The notes beneath the pieces are model-generated. The model saw nothing but the letters and a program-made list of their open reading frames with translations, was not told the origin of the DNA and made no database searches. Below are positions 1,455 to 61,191 of a DNA stretch of 64,000 bases, piece after piece (positions within the stretch are counted from its first letter, which is position 1; every line of letters starts with the position of its first letter). A program made the position numbers and the translations under genes. The stretch is from Eledone cirrhosa (lineage: Eukaryota), in assembly GCA_964016885.1 (NCBI GenBank), contig OZ024743.1, forward strand, positions 8,432,001 through 8,496,000. The letters run 5' to 3'.

Positions 1455-2455
1455 GTTGTGACATTCCAATCCTCACTTTGATATCACCACCATCACTATG
1501 ATATCACCAACCCCATTGTGGGATCGCTATAGACTGTGTGACATCACCATTATCACTATGACATGACAATTGCCATTGTGACATCCTAATTACCACAATC
1601 TTATCACAGTTATCATTATGACATTATCACTGAGACACCACCATTTCTATGATATCACCATCTTCATTGTATGATCACTATAGGTAGTGTGATATCACCA
1701 TTATCACTGAGACATCACCACCATTTCTATGATATCACCATCTTCATTGTATGATCACTATAGGTAGTGTGATATCACCATTATCACTGAGACATCACCA
1801 CCATTTCTATGATATCACCACCCTCATTGTATGATCACTATAGGTAGTGTGATATCACCATTATCACTGAGACATCACCACCATTTCTATGATATCACCA
1901 TCTTCATTGTATGATCACTACAGGTAGTGTGATATCACCATTATCACTGAGACATCACCACCATTTCTATGATATCACCATCTTCATTGTATGATCACTA
2001 CAGGTAGTGTGATATCACCATTATCACTGAGACATCACCACCATTTCTATGATATCACTATCTTCATTGTATGATCACTATAGGTAGTGTGATATCACCA
2101 TTATCACTGAGACATCACCACCATTTCTATGATATCACCATCTTCATTGTATGATCACTACAGGTAGTGTGATATCACCATTATCACTGAGACATCACCA
2201 CCATTTCTATGATATCACTATCTTCATTGTATGATCACTATAGGTAGTGTGATATCACCATTATCACTGAGACATCACCACCATTTCTATGATATCACCA
2301 TCTTCATTGTATGATTACTACAGGTAGTGTGATATCACCATTATCACTGAGACATCACCACCATTTCTATGATATCACCATCTTCATTGTGGCATCACCA
2401 TATTTTTGTGTAACCACTATCAGCCATGTGACATTAGCATCGTCGTAGTGACACC
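1455..2455. repeat. Minisatellite: 80-bp higher-order unit (4 x 20 bp), about 9.5 copies at 1625-2390, degenerate 20-mers on both sides
   Basis: ttatcactga recurs every 80 bp from 1701 to 2341; subunits gatatcaccattatcactga / gacatcaccaccatttctat / gatatcaccatcttcattgt / atgatcactataggtagtgt. Confidence 0.95.
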
Positions 2456-2546
2456 AGTTTCTTCTGTTTCATTATTTTTTATATTCTATACATCATGAAA
2501 CCATTTTTTTTTAAATTTAATGCTTAATTTCTCTCATTTGGTACAG

Positions 2547-2869
2547 GTTCTAGAAAATTTAAAAAAAAGCACTGATTTCAATCTTATCTTAATTGATATG
2601 CTTGAAAATAGCCCCATTGATAACCAGATCAATATTCTTAATGCATTCATTGATTTTGCCTCTAAATATGGATTAGATAACAACGAACTAATTGCTTTAG
2701 AAATTATTGAGCTTTTAAAAAACACTTACTTAAATACAGAAAATTCTGTTGAGAAGCTGAATGCACTTATGCAGGCTGCAATGAAGAGTTTGGAAATATT
2801 AGGTGTTACAAATGATGTGATCATTTTAGAAGTGATGAAATATTTCATTCATGGTGATGAAGTGACAAG
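2547..2869 (+). CDS. WDR97: WDR97-like gene, internal coding exon A (gene starts upstream of window)
   Basis: Pyrimidine tract + tacag acceptor, open frame VLENLKKSTDF...ILEVMKYFIHGDEVT-R, donor AG|gtttgt (phase 2). ILEVMKYF..RNCVINLLKTFGVED resembles the VLELMSYF..LKKLL.GLGLQDP segment I recall from vertebrate WDR97; identity from memory, needs BLAST. Confidence 0.8.
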
Positions 2870-3854
2870 GTTTGTATGTTATTTGATAATGTAATTGAAC
2901 TGTTTATTAATGCTTTTCTTTTCTAGATTGGGAGATTTATCCATGTAATGAATTGATTTCTGGACACTAAACTAATTTTTGTAAAAGTGTATAGTTCGCT
3001 AAATTCACCCAAGTATATTGCTTTTTGTTAGGGTTCACAACTGCATAGATTTCATGTGGCTCCTATGAGATAGCAGTTCTTAAGAAGTTTCTTAGGTGTT
3101 TTAGTGTTGGGGTCCCAGTCTTATCATATCACCATTTTTCCAGTGAAAGGAGAGGGTATTTGAATGTATAATGCACAGAGTCAGAATATACACTACAAGA
3201 CATTCAACATTCTATCAAATCTGCTAATCCCCAAAGGAGTACTTTATTGACTCCAAAAGTATGAAACAAAAGGATGAAAGTTAAACTTGACATCAGCAGG
3301 ATTTAAACTCAAAGTGCGGAGAACTGTAACAAATACTACAAGGCATTTTAACTGCCTTACCCAAGTATATTACTGTTACTTATTTTATTAATATTGAAGA
3401 CATAAAAATGAAGTTGATGCTAGTGGGATTTCAACTAAGAAATAAATGGGCTTAAACTATGTAACATTCTTTTTCAATCTGTCACTATATTTATGTATGA
3501 GTTGGTGCCTCAATAAAATGCAACAGTACACTCACAAAAGTAGTAGTGTTGGTGTATTGATAAAATGTACCCAGTGCACTCTCTAAAGTGGTAGTGTGGG
3601 TGTCATGATAAAATGTACTATGTACACACTGTTTAGTGGTTGGCATTGGGAAAAGAAACTCTGCCAAAATGAAACCTATGAGCAAAGTGTGGTCACTTGA
3701 CCTGTTTAGTCTCAGTTGGCCCATCCAACAAATGCCAGTATGAAAATGGGATGTAAAATAGTGACAATAGTGGTGATGATTGATACAAAATCATTACAGT
3801 GGTATATCTGTCAATAAATAGGTTGTGTTGAACATTGACTATTCTATATACTTA

Positions 3855-6504: not shown

Positions 6505-7900
6505 AAAAAGAATTGATGGTAATATGAGGGTTAACTATAATCGAGGTCAATATTTTGCTGGTTTTCATCAATTTCAAAATTCTACATATATGTGGTGCTA
6601 AAATATTTTCACTTTGGAGGTGAAATTCATTTTTTGATGTGTTTTGAATGAATATGGCCTTCAAAATGGTTGGAAATTGGTAAAAATCATTATGTAATGG
6701 AGTTGTGAAACAAAAACTGTACTCTAAATGACACATAAAACATTTTAAATATCAAAATATTACAACCTCATAAATATATTCTCTATCAATGAGAATGGCA
6801 CCATCTAAACATTATATGTTGATTAGATTTGGCTTATGCATGGGGTTTGAATTTTTGCCTAGTATTTCTCAATTAAAAGGTATGGGTTGGGGGTTATAAC
6901 TGGATTGGCTTATATTTGAGTATGTTTTTTTGTTTATCTTGAAATAATAGTCCCCATTTTTCAATGAATCATCACAAAATTTGGCACAGATCCAGATCAA
7001 TGTCAGAATCATCCACAAAGGAAAAAAAAAATTCAACTCCCATCTGTTCCTGTGATGAAAGAATGAATTACAGAAAAGAGATGAAAGTATCAGTAGAATG
7101 GGTGTGGGAGAAAAAAAAGAAACAGAATGAACCAATTTTTATGTCAAACTCTGTTGTTCTCATTCTTTTCTTTTTCCTCCCCACTTCTCTCTTATATATG
7201 TTTGTGTGTATGTATATGTATTTATAAAATGAATGGAAATCAGTCAATGATTAGCAGTTAATAAATTAGCAAAATTAGCAAAAGGCTCTTCTGGTATATA
7301 TGGTAATGACAAGAAGCAGTAGATAATGATGGTGTATAACAATAGTTTATAAAATAGGGCTGAGAGAACTATTCTGTAGTATGTTGCTACAATAATATGT
7401 ATTCTGCAATATTGTCAAAGTCTTTACTCCTAGTTGTAGAGAAGATTACATTAATAAGGAAAAGAGTGATGGTTATAAGGATGGTGGAGATAATGATAGT
7501 AATGGTGATAATGCTAAAGTAATTGAAATACAGGCATGAAAACATTGGGAAAGAAGTGGTAATGGCGATGGTAGTAGCAATATTACTGAAAATATAAAAT
7601 ATGAAATGTTGAATATTAGGGCTAATACTTATGGCCTGGGAAGAGCTACAGTTTATGGTATGTGCCACAGGTATGACATTATTGCAAACTACCTATTATA
7701 GTAATTCTTTTAGTTTCTATATTTAATGAACAATCTAGCTACAGCCACTTCTGAGCTTTGTAGACTGTGGACAATCCAACATTGCAACAGAATTTTTACA
7801 AATTTTTTAGCTCTGCATCCTGTAAATGTTGATATGACAGCTATTTCTAGTAGGTTGAATGTCAATAAAAACGTTTCCTTATCTTTAGTTAGTAAATAAT

Positions 7901-8290
7901 TGTTTCTATTTTTGGCACAAGGCCAGCAATTACATCAGTGCATTACTGGTGCTTTATTTTATCAACCCCGTAAAGATGAAAGGCAAAGTTGACCTCGGCG
8001 AGATTTGAACTCAAATCGTAAAGGGCTGTAACTTTATGCTGCTAAGCATGGTGTCCGACCCTTTACCAATACTGCCAATTCACCACATTCAGTTAGTAAA
8101 TAATTGTTTCTACTTTAGGCACAAGGCCAGTAATTACCCAGTGCATTACTGGTACTTTATTTTATCGACCCCGTAAGGATGAAAGGCAAAGTCAACCTCG
8201 GCGGGATTTGAACTCAGATCATAAAGGGACGTAACTATGCTGGAAAGCATGGCGTCCGACCCTCTACCGATACTGCCAATCCACCGCCCA
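7901..8290 (-). mobile_element. Two tandem SINE A copies sharing one target sequence
   Basis: agttagtaaataat at 7887-7900, 8091-8104 and 8294-8307 brackets both copies. Confidence 0.9.
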
Positions 8291-8480
8291 TTCAGTTAGT
8301 AAATAATACCCTGACTTTGGTTATTTCATCAAAGATATGCTGTAACATTTCTAAAGAGGGTTGAAGTTAATGGGAATAATGAACTGTGGCTTAGCAACTA
8401 TTTCTCCATGATATTAAATGTATAAAAGTTTTATTGTCAATTGTTTTTATAGCTGTCAATTGTTTTTATAACTAATAAAT

Positions 8481-32636: not shown

Positions 32637-33704
32637 TCTGTGTTGATGTTGGTGTTGGCTTTTAGCTACTTTCTCTCAGTTTCTTGTATGGGTAGAGTTG
32701 TCTCTTTCTTTTTCTCTCCCATCTTTGTTCAAGTAGAGTCCAGGTAAAAATTCAGTTCCTGAGTGAAAATCCAATGTAGGAATCTGGCGAATTTGAGGGT
32801 CCACGTTATTTCTGTTTACCTTTTGAATGAATCGGATATTATTATTAATATTCGAAAAACTCAGATTACATTTATTGTATTCAGCCATGTAGAGCAATAA
32901 CTATTTGTTAGTTATATATATGCGTGTGTGTGTGTATGTGGGTATATATATATATATATGCAAAAGGCAAACAGAAATAACAAAGCAAATGACACAGTAC
33001 AATGAAGAAATATATTATTAGATTTATGCTTCATCAGAATATAGACTAAGAAATAGAAAGATTGAGGAGATGGGCAGTGGCAGAAACGAAAAGATTTTTT
33101 AGAGGAAAAACAGGTCTATTCGTGTCTATTGGCGTTTTGTGCAAGATAATCTTGTTTTAAAAGGTGGCGATCAAGCATGTCTAGCTGAAAATTAAAAAAA
33201 CATTTTGTATATAGAGCTGTACATGTGCGCATGTGTACAGGTGTATGTGTTAGTTGTTGGTCCGCACAGAGCTGTGAATATATATATATATATATGATGA
33301 TGATGATAATAATAATATGGAGGAGGTGTCAAATTTTCATTACATTTATTGAGGTGTGACACACTTTGCTATATATGTATATATATATATATATATATAT
33401 AGGTTTCATTAAAACAGCAGAAAGCCAGACTGGCGATGTTCCTTTAAAGTTTTATTGTTGCAAAAACACTAATATATTTCAATGGCCTGGTTAAGTAAGA
33501 TCCTGGTGACAAAATCAGGTTTGGATTGCATAATTAGTTATTTCATAAAGGAATTCAGCAAACACAAACACAAATATTTGATTCAGGGACAGCCTGCGAT
33601 CTAGGTGTTATTGTTGTTGCAGCCAATCCCTGAATGGCAAGTTGGTGAATGCAAAGTATTGTGGGTTTGTTGGCCTAGTGTGTGTGTATATATATATATA
33701 CACC

Positions 33705-35800: not shown

Positions 35801-36198
35801 ATATATTTATAATAGTATCGACAAATATCTGGGGAAAAAAACATGTCTATTCACGTTGCCATCTCTTGGAAAATTTGATACTGGCGTTGTGTAAGATGAT
35901 CTTGTTTTAAAAGGCGGCGATCGAATACGTCTAGCTGAAAAGGAAAAGAAAATTGTTTTGTATATAAAGTGTGTACGTGTTTATATGTGTTTGTTATTCG
36001 TCCGTACGTAGCTAAGAGTATGTGTGTGTTTGTTGTTAATCTGTATAAGATAGAGAGAGAAAGATATGAGAGACCGGTATGTCGCGGCTGGAATGTCTTT
36101 GATAATAGGTCTCATGGATCAGGGGTGATTTGTAGGAAACTTCAACAGATGCATATTTTCAAGACTAGCGGGATGAAACATTATTTTGACGCTGCTAA

Positions 36199-36968: not shown

Positions 36969-37479
36969 CGTGTGCGTATATAAATATATGTATCTCTCTC
37001 TCTCGCTCTCCCTCTCTCTTTCTATATATATATATATATAAGAATACATTTGTAAATACCTGTACTGAGTGATACATGTTTACATATACGTAATAAAACG
37101 ATGCACATACGTATACTGTATAGCGAATATTCTAGTGGTTAACATTGAAAAGAAAAAAACATATTTTGACACGAATAGTATGTTAGTCTTTCTAAAATCA
37201 GATTAAGCTCTGAAACATTTATTATGACACTAAGTCGATATTACATCATTGGTTTTAAATTTAGTTAGATTATTGTGAATGTTTATTTCTGTTATTCAGA
37301 GTCATTTTTCTATTTACCTTATATTTCTAATGCTGGGAGATGTTTTATATTAAATATTATTTTGTCTTGTTTTCTTCGGTTTTGTTTTAAACAAGCACTT
37401 ATTGTTCTCTTGCGTTATTGAGCGGATAGAGACGTAAAAACATAAGTGACTTGGACAGCAAAGAGAGAGCGAGAGGGAA

Positions 37480-40400
37480 GGGGGGAGATTTAGAGAGAGT
37501 CAGGTAGATTTGGAAAATGAGAGAGAGGGGGCGATGAGAGAGATTTAGAGAGAGTCAGGTAGATTTGGAAAATGAGAGAGAGGGGGCGAGGAGAGAGATT
37601 TAGAGAGAGTTAGGTAGGCTTGGGAAAAGAGAGAGAGGGGGCGAGGAGAGAGATTTAGAGAGAGTCAGGTAGATTTGGGAAAAGAGAGAGAGGGGGCGAG
37701 GAGAGAGATTTAGAGAGAGTTAGGTAGGCTTGGGAAAAGAGAGAGAGGGGGCGAGGAGAGAGATTTAGAGAGAGTCAGGTAGATTTGGGAAAAGAGAGAG
37801 AGGGGGCGAGGAGAGAGATTTAGAGAGAGTTAGGTAGGCTTGGGGAAAGAGAGAGAGGGGGCGAGGAGAGAGATTTAGAGAGAGTTAGGTAGGCTTGGGA
37901 AAAGAGAGAGAGGGGGTGAGGAGAGAGATTTAGAGAGAGTCAGGTAGGCTTGGGAAAGAGAGAGAGGGGGCCAAGAGAGAGATTTAGAGAGAGTCAGGTA
38001 GATTTGGGAAAAGAGAGAGAGGGGGCGAGGAGAGAGATTTAGAGAGAGTTAGGTAGGCTTGGGAAAAGAGAGAGAGGGGTGAGGAGAGAGATTTAGAGAG
38101 AGTTAGGTAGGCTTGGGAAAAGAGAGAGAGGGGGTGAGGAGAGAGATTTAGAGAGAGTTAGGTAGGCTTGGGAAAAGAGAGAGAGGGGGCGAGGAGAGAG
38201 ATTTAGAGAGAGTTAGGTAGGCTTGGGAAAAGAGAGAGAGAGAGAGAGAGTGTGTGAGTGAGGCAGACTGAGGTTGAGATAGAAGGGAGAAGGAGGAGAC
38301 ACCTTTAGAGAGAGTTAGGTAAACTTGGGAAAAGAGAGAGAGAGAGTGTGTGTCTGTGTGAGTGAGGCAGACGGAGATTAAGATAGAGGGGGGAAAGGAG
38401 AGAGAGTGAGGTGGACTTGAGCAAAGAGAGAGAGAGAGAGAGAGAGAGGCAGACTGAGGTTGAGATAGTGGTGGAGAAGGAGGAGAGAGATTTAGAGAGT
38501 GAGGTGGACTTGAGCAAAGAGAGAGAGGGGCGATGAGAGAGATTTAGAGAGAGTCAGGTAGATTTGGAAAATGAGAGAGAGGGGGCGAGGAGAGAGATTT
38601 AGAGAGAGTTAGGTAGGCTTGGGAAAAGAGAGAGAGGGGGCCAAGAGAGAGATTTAGAGAGAGTTAGGTAGATTTGGGAAAAGAGAGAGAGGGGGCGAGG
38701 AGAGAGATTTAGAGAGAGTTAGGTAGGCTTGGGAAAAGAGAGAGAGGGGGCGAGGAGAGAGATTTAGAGAGAGTTAGGTAGGCTTGGGAAAAGAGAGAGA
38801 GGGGGCGAGGAGAGAGATTTAGAGAGAGTTAGGTAGGCTTGGGAAAAGAAAGAGAGGGGGCCAAGAGAGAGATTTAGAGAGAGTTAGGTAGGCTTGGGAA
38901 AAGAGAGAGAGGGGGTGAGGAGAGAGATTTAGAGAGAGTTAGGTAGGCTTGGGAAAAGAGAGAGAGGAGGTGAGGAAAGAGATTTAGAGAGAGTTAGGTA
39001 GGCTTGGGAAAAGAGAGAGAGGGGGCGAGGAGAGAGATTTAGAGAGAGTTAGGTACGCTTGGGAAAAGAGAGAGAGGGGGCCAAGAGAGAGATTTAGAGA
39101 GAGTTAGGTAGATTTGGGAAAAGAGAGAGAGGGGGCGAGGAGAGAGATTTAGAGAGAGTTAGGTAGGCTTGGGAAAAGAGAGAGAGGGGGCGAGGAGAGA
39201 GATTTAGAGAGAGTTAGGTAGGCTTGGGAAAAGAGAGAGAGGGGGCGAGGAGAGAGATTTAGAGAGAGTTAGGTACGCTTGGGAAAAGAGAGAGAGGGGG
39301 CCAAGAGAGAGATTTAGAGAGAGTTAGGTAGATTTGGGAAAAGAGAGAGAGGGGGCGAGGAGAGAGATTTAGAGAGAGTTAGGTAGGCTTGGGAAAAGAG
39401 AGAGAGGGGGCGAGGAGAGAGATTTAGAGAGAGTTAGGTAGGCTTGGGAAAAGAGAGAGAGGGGGCGAGGAGAGTGATTTAGAGAGAGTTAGGTAGGCTT
39501 GGGAAAAGAGAGAGAGGGGGCGAGGAGAGAGATTTAGAGAGAGTTAGGTAGGCTTGGGAAAAGAGAGAGAGGGGGCGAGGAGAGAGATTTAGAGAGAGTT
39601 AGGTACGCTTGGGAAAAGAGAGAGAGGGGGCCAAGAGAGAGATTTAGAGAGAGTTAGGTAGATTTGGGAAAAGAGAGAGAGGGGGCGAGGAGAGAGATTT
39701 AGAGAGAGTTAGGTAGGCTTGGGAAAAGAGAGAGAGGGGGCGAGGAGAGAGATTTAGAGAGAGTTAGGTAGGCTTGGGAAAAGAGAGAGAGGGGGCGAGG
39801 AGAGAGATTTAGAGAGAGTTAGGTACGCTTGGGAAAAGAGAGAGAGGGGGCGAGGAAAGAGATTTAGAGAGAGTTAGGTAGGCTTGGGAAAAGAGAGAGA
39901 GGGGGCCAAGAGAGAGATTTAGAGAGAGTCAGGTAGATTTGGGAAAAGAGAGAGAGGGGGTGAGGAGAGAGATTTAGAGAGAGTTAGGTAGGCTTGGGAA
40001 AAGAGAGAGAGGGGGCGAGGAGAGAGATTTAGAGAGAGTTGGGTAGGCTTGGGAAAAGAGAGAGAGGGGGTGAGGAGAGAGATTTAGAGAGAGTTAGGTA
40101 GGCTTGGGAAAAGAGAGAGAGGGGCGAGGAGAGAGATTTAGAGAGAGTTAGGTAGGCTTGGGAAAAGAGAGAGAGGGGCGAGGAGAGAGATTTAGAGAGA
40201 GTTAGGTAGGCTTGGGAAAAGAGAGAGAGGAGGTGAGGAGAGAGATTTAGAGAGAGTTGGGTAGGCTTGGGAAAAGAGAGAGAGGAGGTGAGGAGAGAGA
40301 TTTAGAGAGAGTTAGGTAGGCTTGGGAAAAGAGAGAGAGGAGGTGAGGAGAGAGATTTAGAGAGAGTTGGGTAGGCTTGGGAAAAGAGAGAGAGGAGGTG

Positions 40401-42289
40401 AGGAGAGAGATTTAGAGAGAGTTAGGTAGGCTTGGGAAAAGAGAGAGAGAGGAGGTGAGGAGAGAGATTTAGAGAGAGTTAGGTAGGCTTGGGAAAAGAG
40501 AGAGAGGGGGCGAGGAGAGAGATTTAGAGAGAGTTAGGTAGGCTTGGGAAAAGAGAGAGAGGAGGTGAGGAGAGAGATTTAGAGAGAGTTAGGTAGGCTT
40601 GGGAAAAGAGAGAGAGGGGGCGAGGAGAGAGATTTAGAGAGAGTTAGGTAGGCTTGGGAAAAGAGAGAGAGGGGGCGAGGAGAGAGATTTAGAGAGAGTT
40701 AGGTAGGCTTGGGAAAAGAGAGAGAGGAGGTGAGGAGAGAGATTTAGAGAGAGTTAGGTAGGCTTGGGAAAAGAGAGAGAGGGGGCGAGGAGAGAGATTT
40801 AGAGAGAGTTAGGTAGGCTTGGGAAAAGAGAGAGAGGAGGTGAGGAGAGAGATTTAGAGAGAGTTAGGTAGGCTTGGGAAAAGAGAGAGAGGAGGTGAGG
40901 AGAGAGATTTAGAGAGAGTTAGGTAGGCTTGGGAAAAGAGAGAGAGGAGGTGAGGAGAGAGATTTAGAGAGAGTTAGGTAGGCTTGGGAAAAGAGAGAGA
41001 GGGGCGAGGAGAGAGATTTAGAGAGAGTTAGGTAGGCTTGGGAAAAGAGAGAGAGGGGCGAGGAGAGAGATTTAGAGAGAGTTAGGTAGGCTTGGGAAAA
41101 GAGAGAGAGGGGGTGAGGAGAGAGATTTAGAGAGAGTTGGGTAGGCTTGGGAAAAGAGAGAGAGGAGGTGAGGAGAGAGATTTAGAGAGAGTTAGGTAGG
41201 CTTGGGAAAAGAGAGAGAGGAGGTGAGGAGAGAGATTTAGAGAGAGTTAGGTAGGCTTGGGAAAAGAGAGAGAGAGGAGGTGAGGAGAGAGATTTAGAGA
41301 GAGTTAGGTAGGCTTGGGAAAAGAGAGAGAGGGGGCGAGGAGAGAGATTTAGAGAGAGTTAGGTAGGCTTGGGAAAAGAGAGAGAGGAGGTGAGGAGAGA
41401 GATTTAGAGAGAGTTAGGTAGGCTTGGGAAAAGAGAGAGAGGGGGCGAGGAGAGAGATTTAGAGAGAGTTAGGTAGGCTTGGGAAAAGAGAGAGAGGGGG
41501 CGAGGAGAGATATTTAGAGAGAGTTAGGTAGGCTTGGGAAAAGAGAGAGAGGAGGTGAGGAGAGAGATTTAGAGAGAGTTAGGTAGGCTTGGGAAAAGAG
41601 AGAGAGGAGGTGAGGAGAGAGATTTAGAGAGAGTTAGGTAGGCTTGGGAAAAGAGAGAGAGGGGGCGAGGAGAGAGATTTAGAGAGAGTTAGGTAGGCTT
41701 GGGAAAAGAGAGAGAGGGGGCGAGGAGAGATATTTAGAGAGAGTTAGGTAGGCTTGGGAAAAGAGAGAGAGGAGGTGAGGAGAGAGATTTAGAGAGAGTT
41801 AGGTAGGCTTGGGAAAAGAGAGAGAGGGGGCGAGGAGAGAGATTTAGAGAGAGTTAGGTAGGCTTGGGAAAAGAGAGAGAGGAGGTGAGGAGAGAGATTT
41901 AGAGAGAGTTAGGTAGGCTTGGGAAAAGAGAGAGAGGAGGTGAGGAGAGAGATTTAGAGAGAGTTAGGTAGGCTTGGGAAAAGAGAGAGAGGAGGTGAGG
42001 AGAGAGATTTAGAGAGAGTTAGGTAGGCTTGGGAAAAGAGAGAGAGGGGGCGAGGAGAGAGATTTAGAGAGAGTTAGGTAGGCTTGGGAAAAGAGAGAGA
42101 GAGAGTGTGTGTGAGTGAGGCAGACTGAGGTTGAGATAGAAGGGAGAAGGAGGAGACACCTTTAGAGAGAGTGAGGTAAACTTGGGAAAAGAGAGAGAGA
42201 GTGTGTGTCTGTGTGAGTGAGGCAGACAGAGATTGAGATAGAGGGGGGGAAGGAGAGAGATTTAGAGAGAGTGAGGTGGACTTGAGCAA

Positions 42290-50570: not shown

Positions 50571-50611
50571 TCTTGTCCGAAATATAATAATAATTGTAGT
50601 AATAGTAATAA

Positions 50612-51089
50612 TTGTTTCTACTTTTGGCACAAGGCCAGCAATTAGCCAGTGTATTACTGGTACTTTATTTTATCGACCCCATAAGGATGAAAGGCAAAGT
50701 TAACCTCGGCGGGATTTGAACTCAGAATGGCAAGGGCCGTAACTCTATGCGTCAAAGCATGGCGTCCGACCCTCTACCGATACTGCCAATCCACCGAGTA
50801 ATAGTAATAATGATTTCATTTATTGGCCACAAGGGCCGATGTAGTAGTAATAGTAATAATTGTTTCTACTTTAGGCGCAAGGCCAACAATTACCCCAGTG
50901 CATTACTGGTACTTTATTTTATCGACCCCGTAAGGATGAAAGGCAAAGTTAACCTTGCGGAATTTGAACTCAGACAAAGGCCATAACTCTATGCTGTAAA
51001 GCATGGCGTCCGACCCTCTACCGATACTGCCAATCCACCACCCTAGCATGGCGTCCGACCCTCTAGCGATACTGCCAATCCACCACCCT
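50612..51089 (-). mobile_element. Two SINE A copies, second with duplicated 45-bp head
   Basis: Copies near 50612-50797 (TSD gtaatagtaataat) and 50860-51043; head repeated at 51044-51089. Confidence 0.88.
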
Positions 51090-54007: not shown

Positions 54008-54513
54008 CGAGGTTAACTTTGCCTTTCATCCTTACGGGGTCGATAAAATAAAGTACCAGTAATGCACTGGGGTAATTGCTGGCCTTGTGCCAAAAGTAGA
54101 AACAATTCAATTCTTATCATTATTGGCAGTATCGGTAGAGGGTCGGACGCCATGCTTTCCAGCATAGTTACATCCCTTTACGGTCTGAGTTCAAATCCCG
54201 TCGAGGTTAACTTTGCCTTTCATCCTTACGGGGTCGATATAATAAAATACCAGTAATGCACTGGTAAATTGCTGGCCTTGTGCCAAAAGTAGAAACAATT
54301 ATTATTGTTATTATTTTTCACTAGATGGCGGTGGATTGGCAGTATCGGTAGAGGGTTGGACACCATGCTTTGAAGCATAGAATTATAACCCTTGCCATTC
54401 TGAGTTCATACCCCGCCGAGGTTAACTTTGCTTTTCATCCTTACGGGGTCGATAAAATAAAGTACCAGTAATGCACTGGGTAATTGCTGGCCTTGTGCCA
54501 AAAAGTAGAAACA
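54008..54513 (+). mobile_element. Three head-to-tail SINE A copies in an (ATT)n tract
   Basis: Copies near 54008-54106, 54122-54300 and 54327-54513; the last has TSD attatttttcactagat (54310-54326, 54514-54530). Confidence 0.9.
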
Positions 54514-54599
54514 ATTATTTTTCACTAGATTTCAATTTTATTTCATCTTCCGGCCGGGTCCCAACCAGAAACTTAAAGGACGTATACATTAGATGGAGA

Positions 54600-56740
54600 G
54601 CAACTTCCAGAGACTTGTTTGAACCTCGTAGATTGTTGGTTTCGGTCAGTTACCACAGGCTAGATCCATCTTTCACTATTCTTAGTCTACAGGCCTAAGA
54701 GATTGGTCTTGTGCAGCTACTAGGAGTCTCTCTATCTCTGCTTTCAGACGAGCACTTCTGAGCTAGGCTGGTGAGCCATGCTCATCAATACCATTGTCAA
54801 ATAGGTGCTCTGGGAACCTACCATATAATGGATTTGCCTTCCCTTCAGGGTTAGTTCCATTGTTTGAAGTTTCTTTGCTTTGATCTTCACAATCTTAGCT
54901 AGCTGTGCAATACTCGGGTGTTCATCTTCTATGAGTTTATTTTGTTCCCTCTTCATATTTTGTCTAAATTTGCTTGCTTCTTTTGTTAGTTCATCTTGGG
55001 TGTGGTGTAGGTAGCTATCTAACCAAATGGTTGTTGTTTTGTATGCAGTTTCCATTCATAGGAACCCTAGTCCGCCTTCGCTCCTTGAGATATACAGTCT
55101 ATGTACATCGGCTTTAGGGTGATGCATTTTATCGGCTGTCAGTAGTTTTCTAGTCTCAATGTCCATCATTTGTAGTTCCAGCAGGTTCCATTTTATTATG
55201 TTAAAGCTGAATGTTTAACTTGTTGGGTGAATTAAGGTAACTTCTATTACCAGTCTTACTCTCTCTATTCATTCCTTCCGTATCTTTTCTGTTGTGTTTG
55301 CCTACTAAATCCTATCTCCTTCATTAACTCCAAGATATTTGTAAAGTTCTTCGTTATTCAGTTTCTTCATGGTAGTTTGCTGGTCTATGACAGTGCCTTG
55401 ACTGCTAGAGAGCAGCCTCTCTTGAATGGTGGTGTGGTGGTGTTGATGTAGTAGTGGTGGTGGTGGTGTGTTGGATGGTGGTGTGGTGGTGTTGGTAGTT
55501 TGCTGGTCTATGACAGTGCCTTGACTGCTAGAGAGCAGCCTCTCTTCAATGGTGGTGTGGTGGTGTTGATGTAGTAGTGGTGGTGGTGGTGTGTTGGATG
55601 GTGGTGTGGTGGTGTTGGTAGTTTGCTGGTCTATGACAGTGCCTTGACTGCTAGAGAGCAGCCTCTCTTCAATGGAGGTGTGGTGGTGTTGATGTAGTAG
55701 TGGTGGTGTTGATGTAGTAGTGGTGGTGGTGGTGTGTTGGATGGTGGTGTGGTGGTGTTGGTAGTTTGCTGGTCTATGACAGTGCCTTGACTGCTAGAGA
55801 GCAGCCTCTCTTCAATGGTGGTGTGGTGGTGTTGATGTAGTAGTGGTGGTGGTGGTGTGTTGGATGGTGGTGTGGTGGTGTTGGTAGTTTGCTGGTCTAT
55901 GACAGTGCCTTGACTGCTAGAGAGCAGCCTCTCTTCAATGGTGGTGTGGTGGTGTTGATGTAGTAGTGGTGGTGGTGGTGTGTTGGATGGTGGTGTGGTG
56001 GTGTTGGTAGTTTGCTGGTCTATGACAGTGCCTTGACTGCTAGAGAGCAGCCTCTCTTCAATGGTGGTGTGGTGGTGTTGATGTAGTAGTGGTGGTGGTG
56101 GTGGTGTGTTGGATGGTGGTGTGGTGGTGTTGGTAGTTTGCTGGTCTATGACAGTGCCTTGACTGCTAGAGAGCAGCCTCTCTTCAATGCTGATTTTGCA
56201 CACTTGTTCAGTCCAAATTCTATATGGATATCATCACTAAATTGTTTCAGTGTGCATTGACCATCCAGCTGCCTACCATTTTTTCAAAACAGCTATCATC
56301 CATATAGAGAAGGTAGTATTTGTTGTCCATTTTATATCTATAGCCTGCTCTGCGAAGTAACTGAGGGGAATAAGTGACATATAGAACAGCAAAGGGGAAT
56401 AGTTCACGATTGATCTTGGTCTACCTAGATTCCAGTGATCTATTGTGGTGTTGAAGGACCAATATAGTTTTCAATTTTGACATCATTTCCTTCAGAAAAT
56501 TTGTGACATCATGTGTTATATAACACATTTCTAATGTCTTTGTTATCCATGAATAAGGTAAGCTGTTAAATGCCTTCCTGTAGTCTATCCAAGCCAATGA
56601 GAGGTGTTTCTTCTTTTATTTACAGCTTTCCATTATGAATCTATTTATTAGTAGCTGATCTTTGTACCCAAAGCTTTTTCGTTTACAGCCTTTTTGCTCA
56701 TGTGGCAATAGTTCTTCACAGTCGAAGTAACTGTAGACAC
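54600..56740 (-). mobile_element. Dong/R4-clade LINE fragment (RT to C-terminal region) interrupted by a minisatellite
   Basis: EQKGC..KDQLLIN, AWIDYRKAF, YMDD, YKYLG, MHHPKADVHRLYISRSEGGLG, LVAAQDQSL. Confidence 0.85.
55371..56188 (-). repeat. 123-bp minisatellite: 7 copies of an RT segment separated by (CAC)-rich spacers
   Basis: tgctggtctatgacagtg at 55378, 55501, 55624, 55767, 55890, 56013, 56139. Confidence 0.95.
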
Positions 56741-56836
56741 CCCAGCATCATTGTTATCATATCTTTATCTACCGTCCAATTTACATTGTGGTAGCTGTAA
56801 AAGAAAACACTAATTTCTATACTTTACACAAAGCTT

Positions 56837-57047
<211 letters not shown>

Positions 57048-57108
57048 CAAAGGTGTGGTGGGCCATAGCGCACCAGAGTACTTGATATTTAGGGTAGTAG
57101 AGTGGGTA

Positions 57109-57203
57109 ATATGAAAAGTGGCAGGACCCCGACGGCTGAGCTCCTGCCGTTTCGCATCTAGCTGTCGTTTCGGCCGGAGCTCAGCCGTCGGGGTCCTGAC
57201 TCT

Positions 57204-57211
<8 letters not shown>
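57109..57211. other. GC-rich 103-nt hairpin
   Basis: Perfect 23-bp stem 57122-57144 / 57176-57198 plus outer 10-bp stem atatgaaaag / cttttcatat. Confidence 0.9.
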
Positions 57212-57281
<70 letters not shown>

Positions 57282-57920
57282 CAATAATAATAAATTTGAA
57301 GACTAAAATCCAAAGAGGGCTCGATAAGGATAAATATATATGAGTTTCAGAAGATCCCGTTAAGGGTGAAAGCAGCGATTCTTTGCTTAAACTTTAATCT
57401 GTTATTTTAATAAATATATATATATATATATGTTGTATGTATGTATGTATGTTTGTGTGTCTGTGTGTCTGTGTGTGTATGTGTGTGTGTGTGTACACAA
57501 ATACACACGCACACACATATGTACGTATGTATATTAAATATTGATTCATTGCATACGAAGTTTCCTTAATTCTAATGGTTTTTATCTGAAGGGACGAAAT
57601 TATTGATAATGTAAAATATTGGATTGCCAACTCAACTCTCGTGAATTCCCTTCATTCTAGTCAGGGCGTTCACGTCTATATGGCCTCAACTGTATAAACT
57701 GCAGAATAGTAACCGAGCTTCCCAAAGTGTTGTAACGTTCATTTTTTTAGACAATAATTAAACACTATCGAGCTAAATAAGAAATGTAGATTGACTATAC
57801 ACTTCATATCGAACATTATATTAGATAATGTTTTAATCCTTCTCTAACATAGCCCCATAGAAGTACGTAAATTTGACCTGTTATATGTCTGATTATTCAA
57901 TGTACAAATTCATATACATA

Positions 57921-57996
<76 letters not shown>

Positions 57997-57999
<3 letters not shown>

Positions 58000-59703
58000 A
58001 TAATAATAAAATTGAAGACTAAAATCCAAAGAGGGCTCGATAAGGAAAATATATATCAATTATATAAGAACCGTAGAGCAAATATTTATTAAAATAACAG
58101 ATTAAAGTTTAAGCAAAGAATCGCTGCTTTCACCCTTAATGGGATCTTCTGAAACTAACAAAGTCAATCTGTAAACGCAGAACTGGATATTTCAAAAAAC
58201 GTTGCAACCGGAGGAAGACAGGAAGACGATACTTTGGTTCGTGGAAACGTTCGCTGGCAAAGAACGGGAAAAAACGAATAATACGTCATTATGTGGAGCG
58301 GTGAAAAACAATTACGCGCAAAGACAGAACCACGTTTATGGTATAAAAGAGGTCGTAGACTAATGTTCTCTTAGGTAGTGCATAGAGACGTTCTCTGGCA
58401 ATGAACGAAGAAACGAAGATAATAAGTCATATGTGGAGCGTGGAGAACAATAACACGCAAAGACAAAACCACGTAAATGGTATAGCAGAAGTTGTAGACT
58501 AAAATTCTAACTAGGAGACCAAATGAATCTCCGCTACAGGGTTAAGAACAAAGTAAATAAATACAATACAGAAGTAATAGAAACAAATAAATACATACAC
58601 GCAAACAGATACGTACATACACAAGCATCAGCAAAACCTTACCATAGGTATACAAAACCACGCACATATAAATATGTGTATGTGTGTATGCTTGTGTACA
58701 AATAAATAAATAATTATATAAACGGATAGCACGATCTATACGTGGATATTTTACGTCTTGATGTGGGAGCTAAGTATATGTTTTGTTTATTCCTTTACTT
58801 ATTTGCATAGGTAAGTATATATTACCCGTATGTTTTGTGAAGGTATGTATACCTTCTCGTATGTATATTTGACTGTTATGGCGTATAATTTTTACATATT
58901 CTGGCACTTAGGGTTTGGCTATGTGTATACGGGAGTTTTGCGTCTGCGTGAGTATGCAGGTTCGTACGTATGGTGGGTGTGTGTATATGTGTACGTCTCC
59001 GAACATTCGTGTATTAATTTGTAGGTATGTGTGTGCGCTTGTTATATACGTATTTATTTACTTATATACGTTTATATAATTATTTATTTATTTGTACACA
59101 AGCATACACACACACACATATTTATATGTGCGTGGTTTTGTATACCTATGGTAAGGTTTTGCTGATGCTTGTGTATGTACGTATCTGTTTGCGTGTATGT
59201 ATTTATTTGTTTCTATTACTTCTGTATTGTATTTATTTACTTTGTTCTTAACCCTGTAGCGGAGATTCATTTGGTCTCCTAGTTAGAATTTTAGTCTACA
59301 ACTTCTGCTATACCATTTACGTGGTTTTGTCTTTGCGTGCTATTGTTCTCCACGCTCCACATATGACTTATTATCTTCGTTTCTTCGTTCATTGCCAGAG
59401 AACGTCTCTATGCACCACCTAAGAGAACATTAGTCTACGACCTCTTTTATACCATAAACATGGTTCTGTCTTTGCGCGTAATTGTTTTTCACCGCTCCTA
59501 TTAATGACGTATTATTCGTTTTTTCCCGTTCTTTGCCAGCGAACGTTACCACGAACCAAAGTATCGTCTTCCTGTCTTCCTCCGGTTGCAACGTTTTTTG
59601 AAATATCCAGTTCTGCGTTTACAGATTGACTTTGTTAGTTTCAGAATATCCCGTTAAGGGTGAAAGCAGCGATTCTTTGCTTAAACTTTAATCTGTTATT
59701 TTA

Positions 59704-59802
<99 letters not shown>

Positions 59803-59916
59803 TAACAGATTAAAGTTTAAGCAAAGAATTTGCTCTACGGTTCTTATATATTTGATATATATTTATCCTTATCGAGCCCTCTTTGGATTTTAGTCTTCAA
59901 ATTTATTATTATTACT
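57997..59916. repeat. About 1.9-kb compound inverted repeat (inner arms 58082-58727 and 59066-59710)
   Basis: Inner arms are near-exact reverse complements; outer module 57997-58083 pairs with 59830-59916. Confidence 0.93.
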
Positions 59917-59929
59917 ATATATATATATA

Positions 59930-60390
59930 ATATCTGCATTTGTGAAGTTATTTTGCGCCAGAAATGATATCGTCCGGGACTTGAGATTTTTACTTTTATC
60001 TCTTCCAAAACAGTCACCGTAACTGCTATTAACTAGATGTGTGCAGGTGCATTACTGCAATTTGGCAGATTCATTAAGTGAGCTAGACGTTGGCCGAAAA
60101 ACGTTAACTTAATACCAGCGATTCCGTCACATTTATATATAACGCCACCACCAACAGTTTTGCAAGAGATGTCAACATGAATGGAGCTGTTATTTTTATC
60201 TAAAGACATTTTTTCCAATTACATCCCGCCCGTACCCTCAATCTATTTTATTTCTCATTCTTTCTTCTGATGAAGGACTAGCGTCCGAAACGCTAAAACC
60301 CTCTTCCTGCTACATCAAGCGTTAACCTAATATATACCTTCCATATACTATACCGATTGTGTTGTTATTTCTGTTTACCTTTTACATACA
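59930..60390 (+). mobile_element. Penelope-like pseudo-LTR fragment
   Basis: Carries a hammerhead motif and runs into (TA)n; homologous - strand pieces near 12880-13150, 32960-33230 and 35835-35990. Confidence 0.6.
60267..60296 (+). ncRNA. Minimal hammerhead-like motif
   Basis: CTGATGA-A-GGAC-tagc-GTCC-GAAACG; stem III imperfect. Confidence 0.6.
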
Positions 60391-60400
60391 TATATATATA

Positions 60401-60525
60401 TATAATAACTAGAAATTGATTAACATATATATAAACATGAATAATCACAGGAGATAATTTTTACAAATGTGTAACCTGTGATTATTCATGTTTATATATA
60501 TGTTAATCAATTTCTAGTTATTATA
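60401..60525. repeat. 51-bp perfect inverted repeat
   Basis: 60401-60451 pairs with 60475-60525. Confidence 0.9.
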
Positions 60526-60648
60526 AAATGCTCGGACCTACTCGTTAGAATCTTAGAGCTTATTTTTCGGGTGATATGGCGCATGTCTTTCTGGCATGAC
60601 ACCCATAACTTTGATCTAGATTAAATTCATTTAATTTATCTTAATTTT

Positions 60649-60730
<82 letters not shown>

Positions 60731-61191
60731 GTAACAAACCGGGAGGTTATATCCATCGTAAGTAGAGCACCCGGTCCAGAGGACAAGTTCGGTATAGAGT
60801 TAGTTCCACGGTTTGTTAATTTGTTGTGGAACTAACTAACTCTCTATCTCTCTCTTTCTCTCTCTATATATATATGTATATATATATATATGTGTGTGTG
60901 TGTGTTAGATATTAGTTTAACAATGATAATAATAACAAAGGCAAGTTATTTTATATATTCCTTTCATTGTTTTACGATCGTTTCGGAGGGGTGATCATAT
61001 TGATACATTGATTGATCTATAGCAGTTGGAGAACTGAATACTAATATCTAATATATCAGTCTCTGTATCTGTAGGATTGACTCAGCGAAACACGGAACCA
61101 TTCTCTGGATCTCATTGAATTATTGCTAACGGATTACATTAAGTTCTAACTACGGTATAGACCCTACCACGGAAGGTATAACACATTGAAG

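Follow-up and report, generated by a model that had tools for sequence, protein, structure and literature searches.

The question raised by this locus is how two short sequence modules, A and B, came to recur in both orientations beside (TA)n tracts in the window (the whole 64-kb stretch of Eledone cirrhosa DNA analysed here, which sits in a 3.0-Gb genome). The initial annotation had counted four inserts and had explained them by breaks in (TA)n that were healed by reverse transcription from both broken ends with two RNA tails. The modules were found at the places and in the orientations noted earlier. Our reading, to which we give a probability of roughly three in four, is that the window holds three 5'-truncated insertions of one element, whose endonuclease would have cut a (TA)n tract and whose reverse transcription would have started in twin fashion from two sites of one RNA. 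This statement is built on observations of the identity of the element, its two fixed ends, their strict pairing, the motif common to both, the excess of an extra G and the coupling of the arm lengths, each of which is described below.

The outermost units were A+B+ (57281-57413) and B-A- (59795-59916). Between them, A+ (57997-58083) leads into B- and a 647-nt arm, and the inverted long arms (58082-58728 and 59065-59711, each 647 nt) were 98.3% identical with 11 mismatches and no gaps. The 336-nt spacer between the arms (58729-59064) is 3' UTR of the element and runs without a break into the right arm, so that 57997-59711 forms a single head-to-head insertion; the window thus has three insertions, not four, each composed of a tail-ended arm and an inverted tail-less arm (Table 1). 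In insertion 2, the tail arm (to reference position 2524) and the tail-less arm (from 2160) are joined at a 4-nt microhomology (58721-58724). At the inner junction of insertion 1 (57342), the element has T, a continuation of the tail arm would give C, and the window has G. The tail allele of insertion 2 differs from the tail alleles of insertions 1 and 3; therefore these were separate insertion events. The unique flank (57600-57899) was at single-copy depth in two sequencing runs of one sample, and the A-to-B joints were present in short-read contigs and also in the raw reads of a second study; among the short-read contigs and RAD reads, none spanning the window locus was found.

Table 1. Coordinates of the three insertions and their target tracts in the window, with the matching part of the reference element
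Feature	Window position	Strand	Reference positions, identity	Remark
(TA)n target tract left of insertion 1	57209..57280	.		
Insertion 1, tail-primed arm	57281..57341	-	3196-3253, 94.9%	last ~60 nt of the tail (module A), ending short of the B site
Untemplated G of insertion 1	57342..57342	+		directly before the putative RNA start; putative copy of the 5' cap
Insertion 1, tail-less arm (module B)	57343..57413	+	3096-3170, 98.7%	from the putative RNA start (A of TTAGTT) to the B end
Hammerhead-like motif of insertion 1	57343-57393	+		core CAGAAGA...GAAA; cleavage predicted after 57388; by-eye parse on the model of the hammerhead table for the Hydra clade
(TA)n target tract left of insertion 2	57929..57996	.		
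Insertion 2, complete tail (module A)	57997..58083	-		87-88 nt; lies within the 5' UTR in tandem copies
Insertion 2, remainder of tail-primed arm	58084..58724	-	2524-3254, 97.4%	native B end and 3' UTR
Internal duplication in the tail-primed arm of insertion 2	58244-58508	-		139 nt
Insertion 2, tail-less arm	58721..59711	+	2160-3170, 96.5%	ORF end, entire 3' UTR, hammerhead-like motif, B end
Last two ORF codons and TAG stop in the tail-less arm of insertion 2	58721-58729	+		
Hammerhead-like motif of insertion 2	59637-59687	+		core G-to-T change at 59647
(TA)n tract separating insertions 2 and 3	59709..59796	.		
Insertion 3, tail-less arm	59795..59829	-		final 35 nt of B; shares a 2-nt microhomology with the tail arm
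Insertion 3, tail-primed arm	59828..59916	+	3169-3254, 95.4%	complete tail, then (TA)n

Judged from their sequence context, A and B lie side by side in a single young Penelope-like element (PLE) that has Hydra-clade motifs, and the identity of this element as a PLE is in our view virtually certain. A is an 88-nt tail, B is the end of the pseudo-LTR (pLTR) with a hammerhead-like motif, and the tail comes after B in the element sequence. That the modules are real was borne out by a 32-mer of A, which had 14,236 exact genomic matches (reversed control, 0). The genome search with the long arm gave at least 41 scored places, 40 of which were full-length at 98-100% identity (the best 41 of 1,485 candidates). 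At one locus (L080) the order is B, reverse-complement A, about 45 nt of 5' UTR, a 708-codon ORF, about 1 kb of 3' UTR, B and reverse-complement A, that is, a partial tandem forming a pLTR; adjacent inverted 5'-truncated copies occurred in the census described below. Reference positions count along a 3,254-nt slice of L080, in which B ends at 3166-3170 and the tail at 3254.

The 708-aa single ORF of L080 contains the reverse transcriptase motifs FD..YY, MG..DSAE and YRDDG and, at its C-terminus, the GIY-YIG-type motifs VY..YIG..R..E..N (VY585-587, YIG600-602, E667 and N680); the Y, G, E and N were invariant in 37 aligned relatives, and the Arg-bearing endonuclease motif was present in most translated copies. 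By motif, then, the element carries its own GIY-YIG endonuclease domain. Pfam and PDB sequence searches with the element protein gave no match; its homologues numbered 1,599 at E 1e-20 or better, the closest of which (P0002) matches PF01541, and the five best Foldseek matches of its AlphaFold model (pLDDT 87.6) were all TERT structures. The link to Penelope elements drawn in the initial annotation is upheld by the YRDD and GIY-YIG motifs of the ORF, the TERT-like fold model and the tandem structure of L080.

The Hydra clade consists of PLEs with a C-terminal endonuclease (EN+), for nearly all members of which (TA)n insertion has been reported, and includes Hydra-1_Obim of Octopus bimaculoides (PMC8557442, Craig et al. 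2021). By motifs and by eye, the present element resembles this clade. It shares the single ORF with the reverse transcriptase followed by GIY-YIG, and the counterpart of RWK is RW(R) (LRWRAF; RW invariant and K in most relatives of the alignment). The DKG-to-DKT change (SDKTGN), the CxCx5C linker (CNCRNRADC566-574) and the CxxC..E..N..CxH arrangement (CDLC661, E667, N680 and CKH689-691) are present as well, and the Cys and His residues of the linker and of CxxC/CxH were all invariant in the alignment. Further likenesses are the (TA)n insertion, the hammerhead layout with 'gaagat...tgaa', the inverted 5'-truncated copy and the one-sided tail. Compared by eye only, the N-terminus and the hammerhead differ from those of Hydra-1_Obim, so that the element appears to be of another family. 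Its unit is about 3.25 kb with a 1-kb 3' UTR, whereas the members of the clade are described as 'generally <3 kb' (PMC8557442); its tail is 88 nt, against the 30-40 bp reported for PLEs, and the hammerhead core is CAGAAGA instead of the reported CTGAAGA of the Hydra clade. Hammerhead variants have been located in the pLTRs of PLEs (PMC4209133). In the present element, helices I-III and GAAA can be parsed by eye in the layout of the clade, but the core has A for U4; there was no hammerhead among the 44 weak matches of the Rfam scan, the hammerhead was not the minimum-energy fold of B in the folding predictions, and the element arms showed no 5'-end pile-up at the predicted cut.

Both ends of the element are base-precise. 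Exact genome-wide matches numbered 18,224 for B-to-TA, 14,528 for tail-to-TA, 10,857 for B-to-tail and 451 for tail-to-5' UTR, with reversed controls of 0. The earlier observation that the fixed outer ends adjoin (TA)n was upheld: among 30 position-ordered A matches, 24 bordered on TA, two ran on into the 5' UTR and four were flanked by AAT-rich runs. The internal copy of B at 58082, which had been set aside as an exception, is not one, because in the element itself B leads straight into reverse-complement A, as seen in L080 and in the 10,857 exact copies. Just beyond the two ends, both start sites read TAT|TTG(G)CTC..CGGTT; each site thus has 3-4 nt of target homology, followed by a shared motif. 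A hairpin was weakly predicted by folding, after the tail end only. A and B would accordingly mark two places, 88 nt apart, at which copying of one element RNA starts, rather than the two RNA tails initially proposed.

The pairing of the two ends was examined in a census of the first 100 listed tail-to-TA sites and of entries 31-70 of the first 100 B-to-TA sites, each followed for 5 kb inward; the census covers exact-match (younger) copies in the first 45 Mb of one contig. Among the 100 position-ordered tail-anchored insertions, the far end was B in 57, truncated or single-ended in 43 (nine of them with a short B remnant of 7-17 nt) and a second tail in none, and the tail was one-sided in all of the double-ended ones (57/57). 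About 44% tail-tail pairs would be expected if the ends were chosen independently (observed 0; p 5e-15). The 40 B-anchored rows had a tail in 22, a truncated far end in 16 and a second B in two, which represent one insertion; this one B-B insertion counts against strict pairing. Five apparent tail-tail pairs in the arm comparison were rejected, as each runs into the 5' UTR on one side and does not have true ends. The variability of the inner junctions, suspected earlier, was seen across the census copies: the junctions differ from copy to copy and, in 58 simple insertions, mostly had an overlap of 0-4 nt (31/58), with inserted bases in 14. At L087/L169, L257 and L293, the inner arm ends carry an extra piece of the 5' UTR and ORF start (reference ~1-117), which suggests template jumps between the 3' and 5' parts of the RNA.

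One inner stop is peculiar. In 192 arms from loci that were not selected by likeness, an exact start at A3096 (TTAGTT) was found in 11, nine of which are preceded by G where the element has T. TTAGTT resembles what we take to be an initiator motif. Exact genome-wide matches numbered 1,226 for G-AGTTT and 984 for A/C-AGTTT. All of 30 sampled G-AGTTT loci were junctions, 24 of them without an explanation from mutation or the partner arm; the 30 sampled A/C-AGTTT loci comprised 13-14 point mutations in continuing copies, nine partner-templated bases and 7-8 untemplated ones (L359 was classed two ways). Hence G made up about 80% of the unexplained non-T bases against 27% by composition, in a count to which T-preceded junctions are invisible. 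The extra G occurred on both arms at some junctions (L304, L310 and L325/326), and the 26 G-marked rows that have a partner arm, which represent 23 distinct insertions, all have a partner ending at or before 3096; four rows were without a partner. We infer that the extra G before A3096 is a trace of the RNA cap, in which case both the start site and the cap would be read from DNA alone. It is like the untemplated G at the run-off 5' end of L1, which has been read as a reverse-transcribed cap (PMC9341517). A preference of terminal transferase activity at a structured stop could also produce the extra G. For the pile-up of arm ends at 3099-3103, a near-palindrome that would promote microhomology joining is an equally good explanation. 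A set of 22 arms scored as starting at 3094 was put aside, since most belong to an older subfamily that continues upstream.

The lengths of the two arms were compared in 69 distinct double-ended insertions. When the tail arm passed upstream of 3090, the B arm did so too in 25 of 26 insertions; when the tail arm ended at 3090-3159, the B arm passed 3090 in 2 of 15 (Fisher p 8e-8 between the two groups), and with tail arms shorter than this stop it did so in 13 of 28. The two arms were concordant at the main subfamily site in all 39 pairs compared, and at polymorphic sites they differed from each other in 41 of 655 comparisons, against 7,926 of 27,037 (29%) between insertions. Differences at one or more common polymorphic sites were found in 19 of 43 arm pairs (14 of these pairs being from loci picked by likeness to the window), mostly inside the 139-nt internal duplication or at one site, and because of this clustering the polymorphisms are not decisive between one and two templates. 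At reference position 3007 (around 59522-59523 in the window), arms with common rare alleles still differ in L031, L034, L049, L056 and L059; the site may be a hot spot of mutation or reverse-transcription error, or two repeats of one source may be involved.

The following course of insertion would fit these counts. The element's endonuclease would cleave a (TA)n tract on both strands, and each of the resulting ends would prime reverse transcription on the same RNA at one of the two fixed sites 88 nt apart, where UAU/AUAU (3-4 nt) could pair with the nicked TA strand. The RNA would carry a cap, and its first base would be the A of TTAGTT, where the hammerhead-like motif has its 5' edge. If the cap-proximal sites were used, both copies would run off within 75 and 160 nt and leave short A+B+ stubs; with the downstream sites, both arms could be long. 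The two cDNA ends would then be joined head to head by microhomology or blunt joining. The priming of reverse transcription from both DNA ends, as had been proposed in the initial annotation, is supported as an interpretation of the data. In L1 twin priming, the second-strand nick serves as a second primer on the same RNA, this primer anneals at variable internal sites and the segments abut; in the present element, both start sites are fixed and the arms often overlap.

Overlapping arms require that the same stretch of RNA was copied twice, which counts against a single template, and they are common (47/69 by the overlap rule). They are what would be expected if the two arms were copied by twin priming from two RNA molecules of one source locus, for example one for each subunit of a protein dimer, and a dimer has been predicted for Poseidon_Ac (PAc) (PMC11167929). 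Two like RNAs from one source locus would predict the same pairing and coupling, and arms with common lineage alleles are sometimes discordant, as at five linked sites in L276 and at site 3007 in 5 of 17 pairs; many of the discordant alleles, however, are those of the adjoining unit of the 139-nt duplication and may have come from conversion. We consider this two-template explanation unlikely, since it needs the extra rule that the tail site goes to one subunit and the B site to the other (0/57 tail-tail) and that both subunits use either the cap-proximal or the downstream sites (25/26 against 2/15). Considerably less probable is the proposal made for rotifer Penelope elements, that one cDNA or antisense RNA snaps back and copies itself to give the inverted arm (PMC3846280). 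The arms do have alleles in common, and symmetric junctions were seen among the 69 insertions (3099|3099 in four, 3096|3096 in two and 3123|3123 in one), but the tail arm stops short of the B site in 22 of 69, it is exceeded at the 5' side by the B arm in 46 of 69, and the extra G sits at an initiator-like site of the sense strand. The arms of window insertions 1 and 3 do not overlap, and in non-overlapping insertions self-priming of this kind is excluded, as neither arm could have been copied from its partner; a minority of insertions, with symmetric junctions, may still have arisen in this way.

Passive patching of pre-existing breaks in a fragile (TA)n locus, without an element nuclease and from two different RNA tails, was the process originally suggested, and as a general account we find it highly improbable. 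Three insertions within 2.7 kb with differing tail alleles (separate events), stubs of other families in the neighbouring TA tracts and the enrichment of close pairs would suit it. A and B, however, are contiguous in one element, the ends are base-precise at tens of thousands of sites, the conserved GIY-YIG residues are encoded (the Arg-bearing motif being found in most translated copies), and the preference for (TA)n is a reported trait of the clade (PMC8557442). Self-made nicks are a simpler source of the ends than passive breaks, given these endonuclease motifs and the (TA)n insertion of the clade, although endonuclease-independent repair may have been involved in any single insertion. Nor is the window a special hot spot of retro-repair: there are about 14,500 tail ends genome-wide, and on another chromosome six of 99 gaps between insertions were <3 kb against 0.66 expected, which is about 9-fold enriched; since close pairs are enriched there too, local clustering is a general property of the element family. 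Hardly credible to us are two other views, one of which takes the short A+B units for a MITE-like DNA transposon whose ends are asymmetric, and the other the region for a fold-back of the assembly. Dispersed short units that have fixed outer ends do occur in the genome, and no contig or RAD read spans the locus. Against a mis-assembly stand the 11 differences between the window arms, the A-to-B joints in the two kinds of short-read data and the single-copy flank; against a transposon, the variable inner junctions and the ends that belong to an element encoding a reverse transcriptase. A TIR DNA transposon or MITE was thus rejected as a candidate, since the flanks lead to the reverse transcriptase ORF, the A and B ends are unlike and not TIRs, and the architecture is present at thousands of unrelated loci. 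A non-LTR retrozyme was also rejected: non-LTR retrozymes have been described as tandem arrays of short hammerhead-bearing monomers (10.64898/2026.07.22.740005), and the short copies here are single head-to-head pairs of varying length.

Twin priming on one RNA, our preferred reading, has its closest biochemical parallel in PAc, for which nicking and extension of both strands, internal starts at two sites bounding the tail, and no need for hammerhead cleavage have been reported in vitro (PMC11167929, Frangieh et al. 2024). Both elements have two internal initiation sites that lie downstream of the hammerhead and bound the tail; the present element is of another clade, its start sites lie in the 5' UTR, and it has 3-4 nt of (TA)n homology, whereas the PAc starts were reported to lack homology to the cut DNA. 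End pairing, arm-length coupling and a cap trace are not addressed in the accessible text of that paper (PMC11167929). The Penelope elements of Adineta vaga share the head-to-head inverted pLTRs, an optional tail at one end, an Inr-like pLTR sequence and palindromic junctions; the model of self-priming on an antisense template put forward for them misfits the non-overlapping arms and the sense-strand extra G seen here (PMC3846280). In the Drosophila virilis Penelope, transcription begins within the pLTR, at an initiator accompanied by downstream promoter elements (PMC2377424), a position like that proposed for the present element from its DNA. The origin of the inverted repeats of PLEs with a tail at one end was named as open in two papers (PMC8557442, PMC11167929), and in the literature within reach of our search (most subscription papers and bioRxiv supplements lay outside it) we found no description of twin priming, a cap G, arm coupling, an 88-nt tail or strict pairing in PLEs. 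The layout, the one-sided tail and the (TA)n bias have already been published, and the locus is therefore an ordinary cluster of a TA-targeting element, for which no special repair process is needed. What the young family of about 15,000 insertions adds is numbers, by which strict pairing, non-overlapping arms, a cap-like G and coupling discriminate between models. We lean slightly towards the broader statement that twin priming on one capped RNA gave rise to every double-ended Penelope insertion, in one particle with two (TA)n nicks and starts at two motifs 88 nt apart, in either the cap-proximal or the downstream repeat, and that the thousands of short stubs are run-off copies of the capped front end. 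If this is true, the genome itself would preserve a record of where transcription starts, of the cap and of the joint use of one template, and twin priming of one capped RNA would explain the inverted pLTR and the one-sided tail of the whole class.

Several other features of the window lie near the three insertions. A stub at 57047-57207 belongs to a second dispersed family, for which a 32-mer had 1,923 exact matches and which also has a tailed arm and an inverted tail-less arm in (TA)n with a tail of about 85-90 nt; the 20 sampled copies were all short, no parent ORF was found among them, and there was no clear extra G in 20 loci. The region 60405-60650 consists of a 120-nt near-palindrome followed by about 125 nt of single-copy sequence and (TA)n, and looks like a third family with the same tailed and inverted layout; the same arm flanks L021. 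A canonical-looking minimal hammerhead core, CTGATGA...GAAAC (~60267-60292), lies in 60140-60390, which has a weak likeness to 32957-33125 and 35835-35888 and is probably another PLE end. The short sequence at 60728-60840, which comes after a (TA)n tract and ends in a 12-bp inverted repeat, is possibly another stub. The region 55370-56850 comprises a 123-nt tandem array and, after it, about 650 nt ending at (TA)n, the composition and (TA)n end of which suggest a decayed retroelement. Elsewhere in the window, a 55-nt purine-rich unit with 92-95% matches forms a 4.6-kb array of extreme GC skew at 37464-42101, and 7887-8307, 50596-51039 and 54008-54515 are tandem copies (203-248 nt) of one SINE-like repeat.
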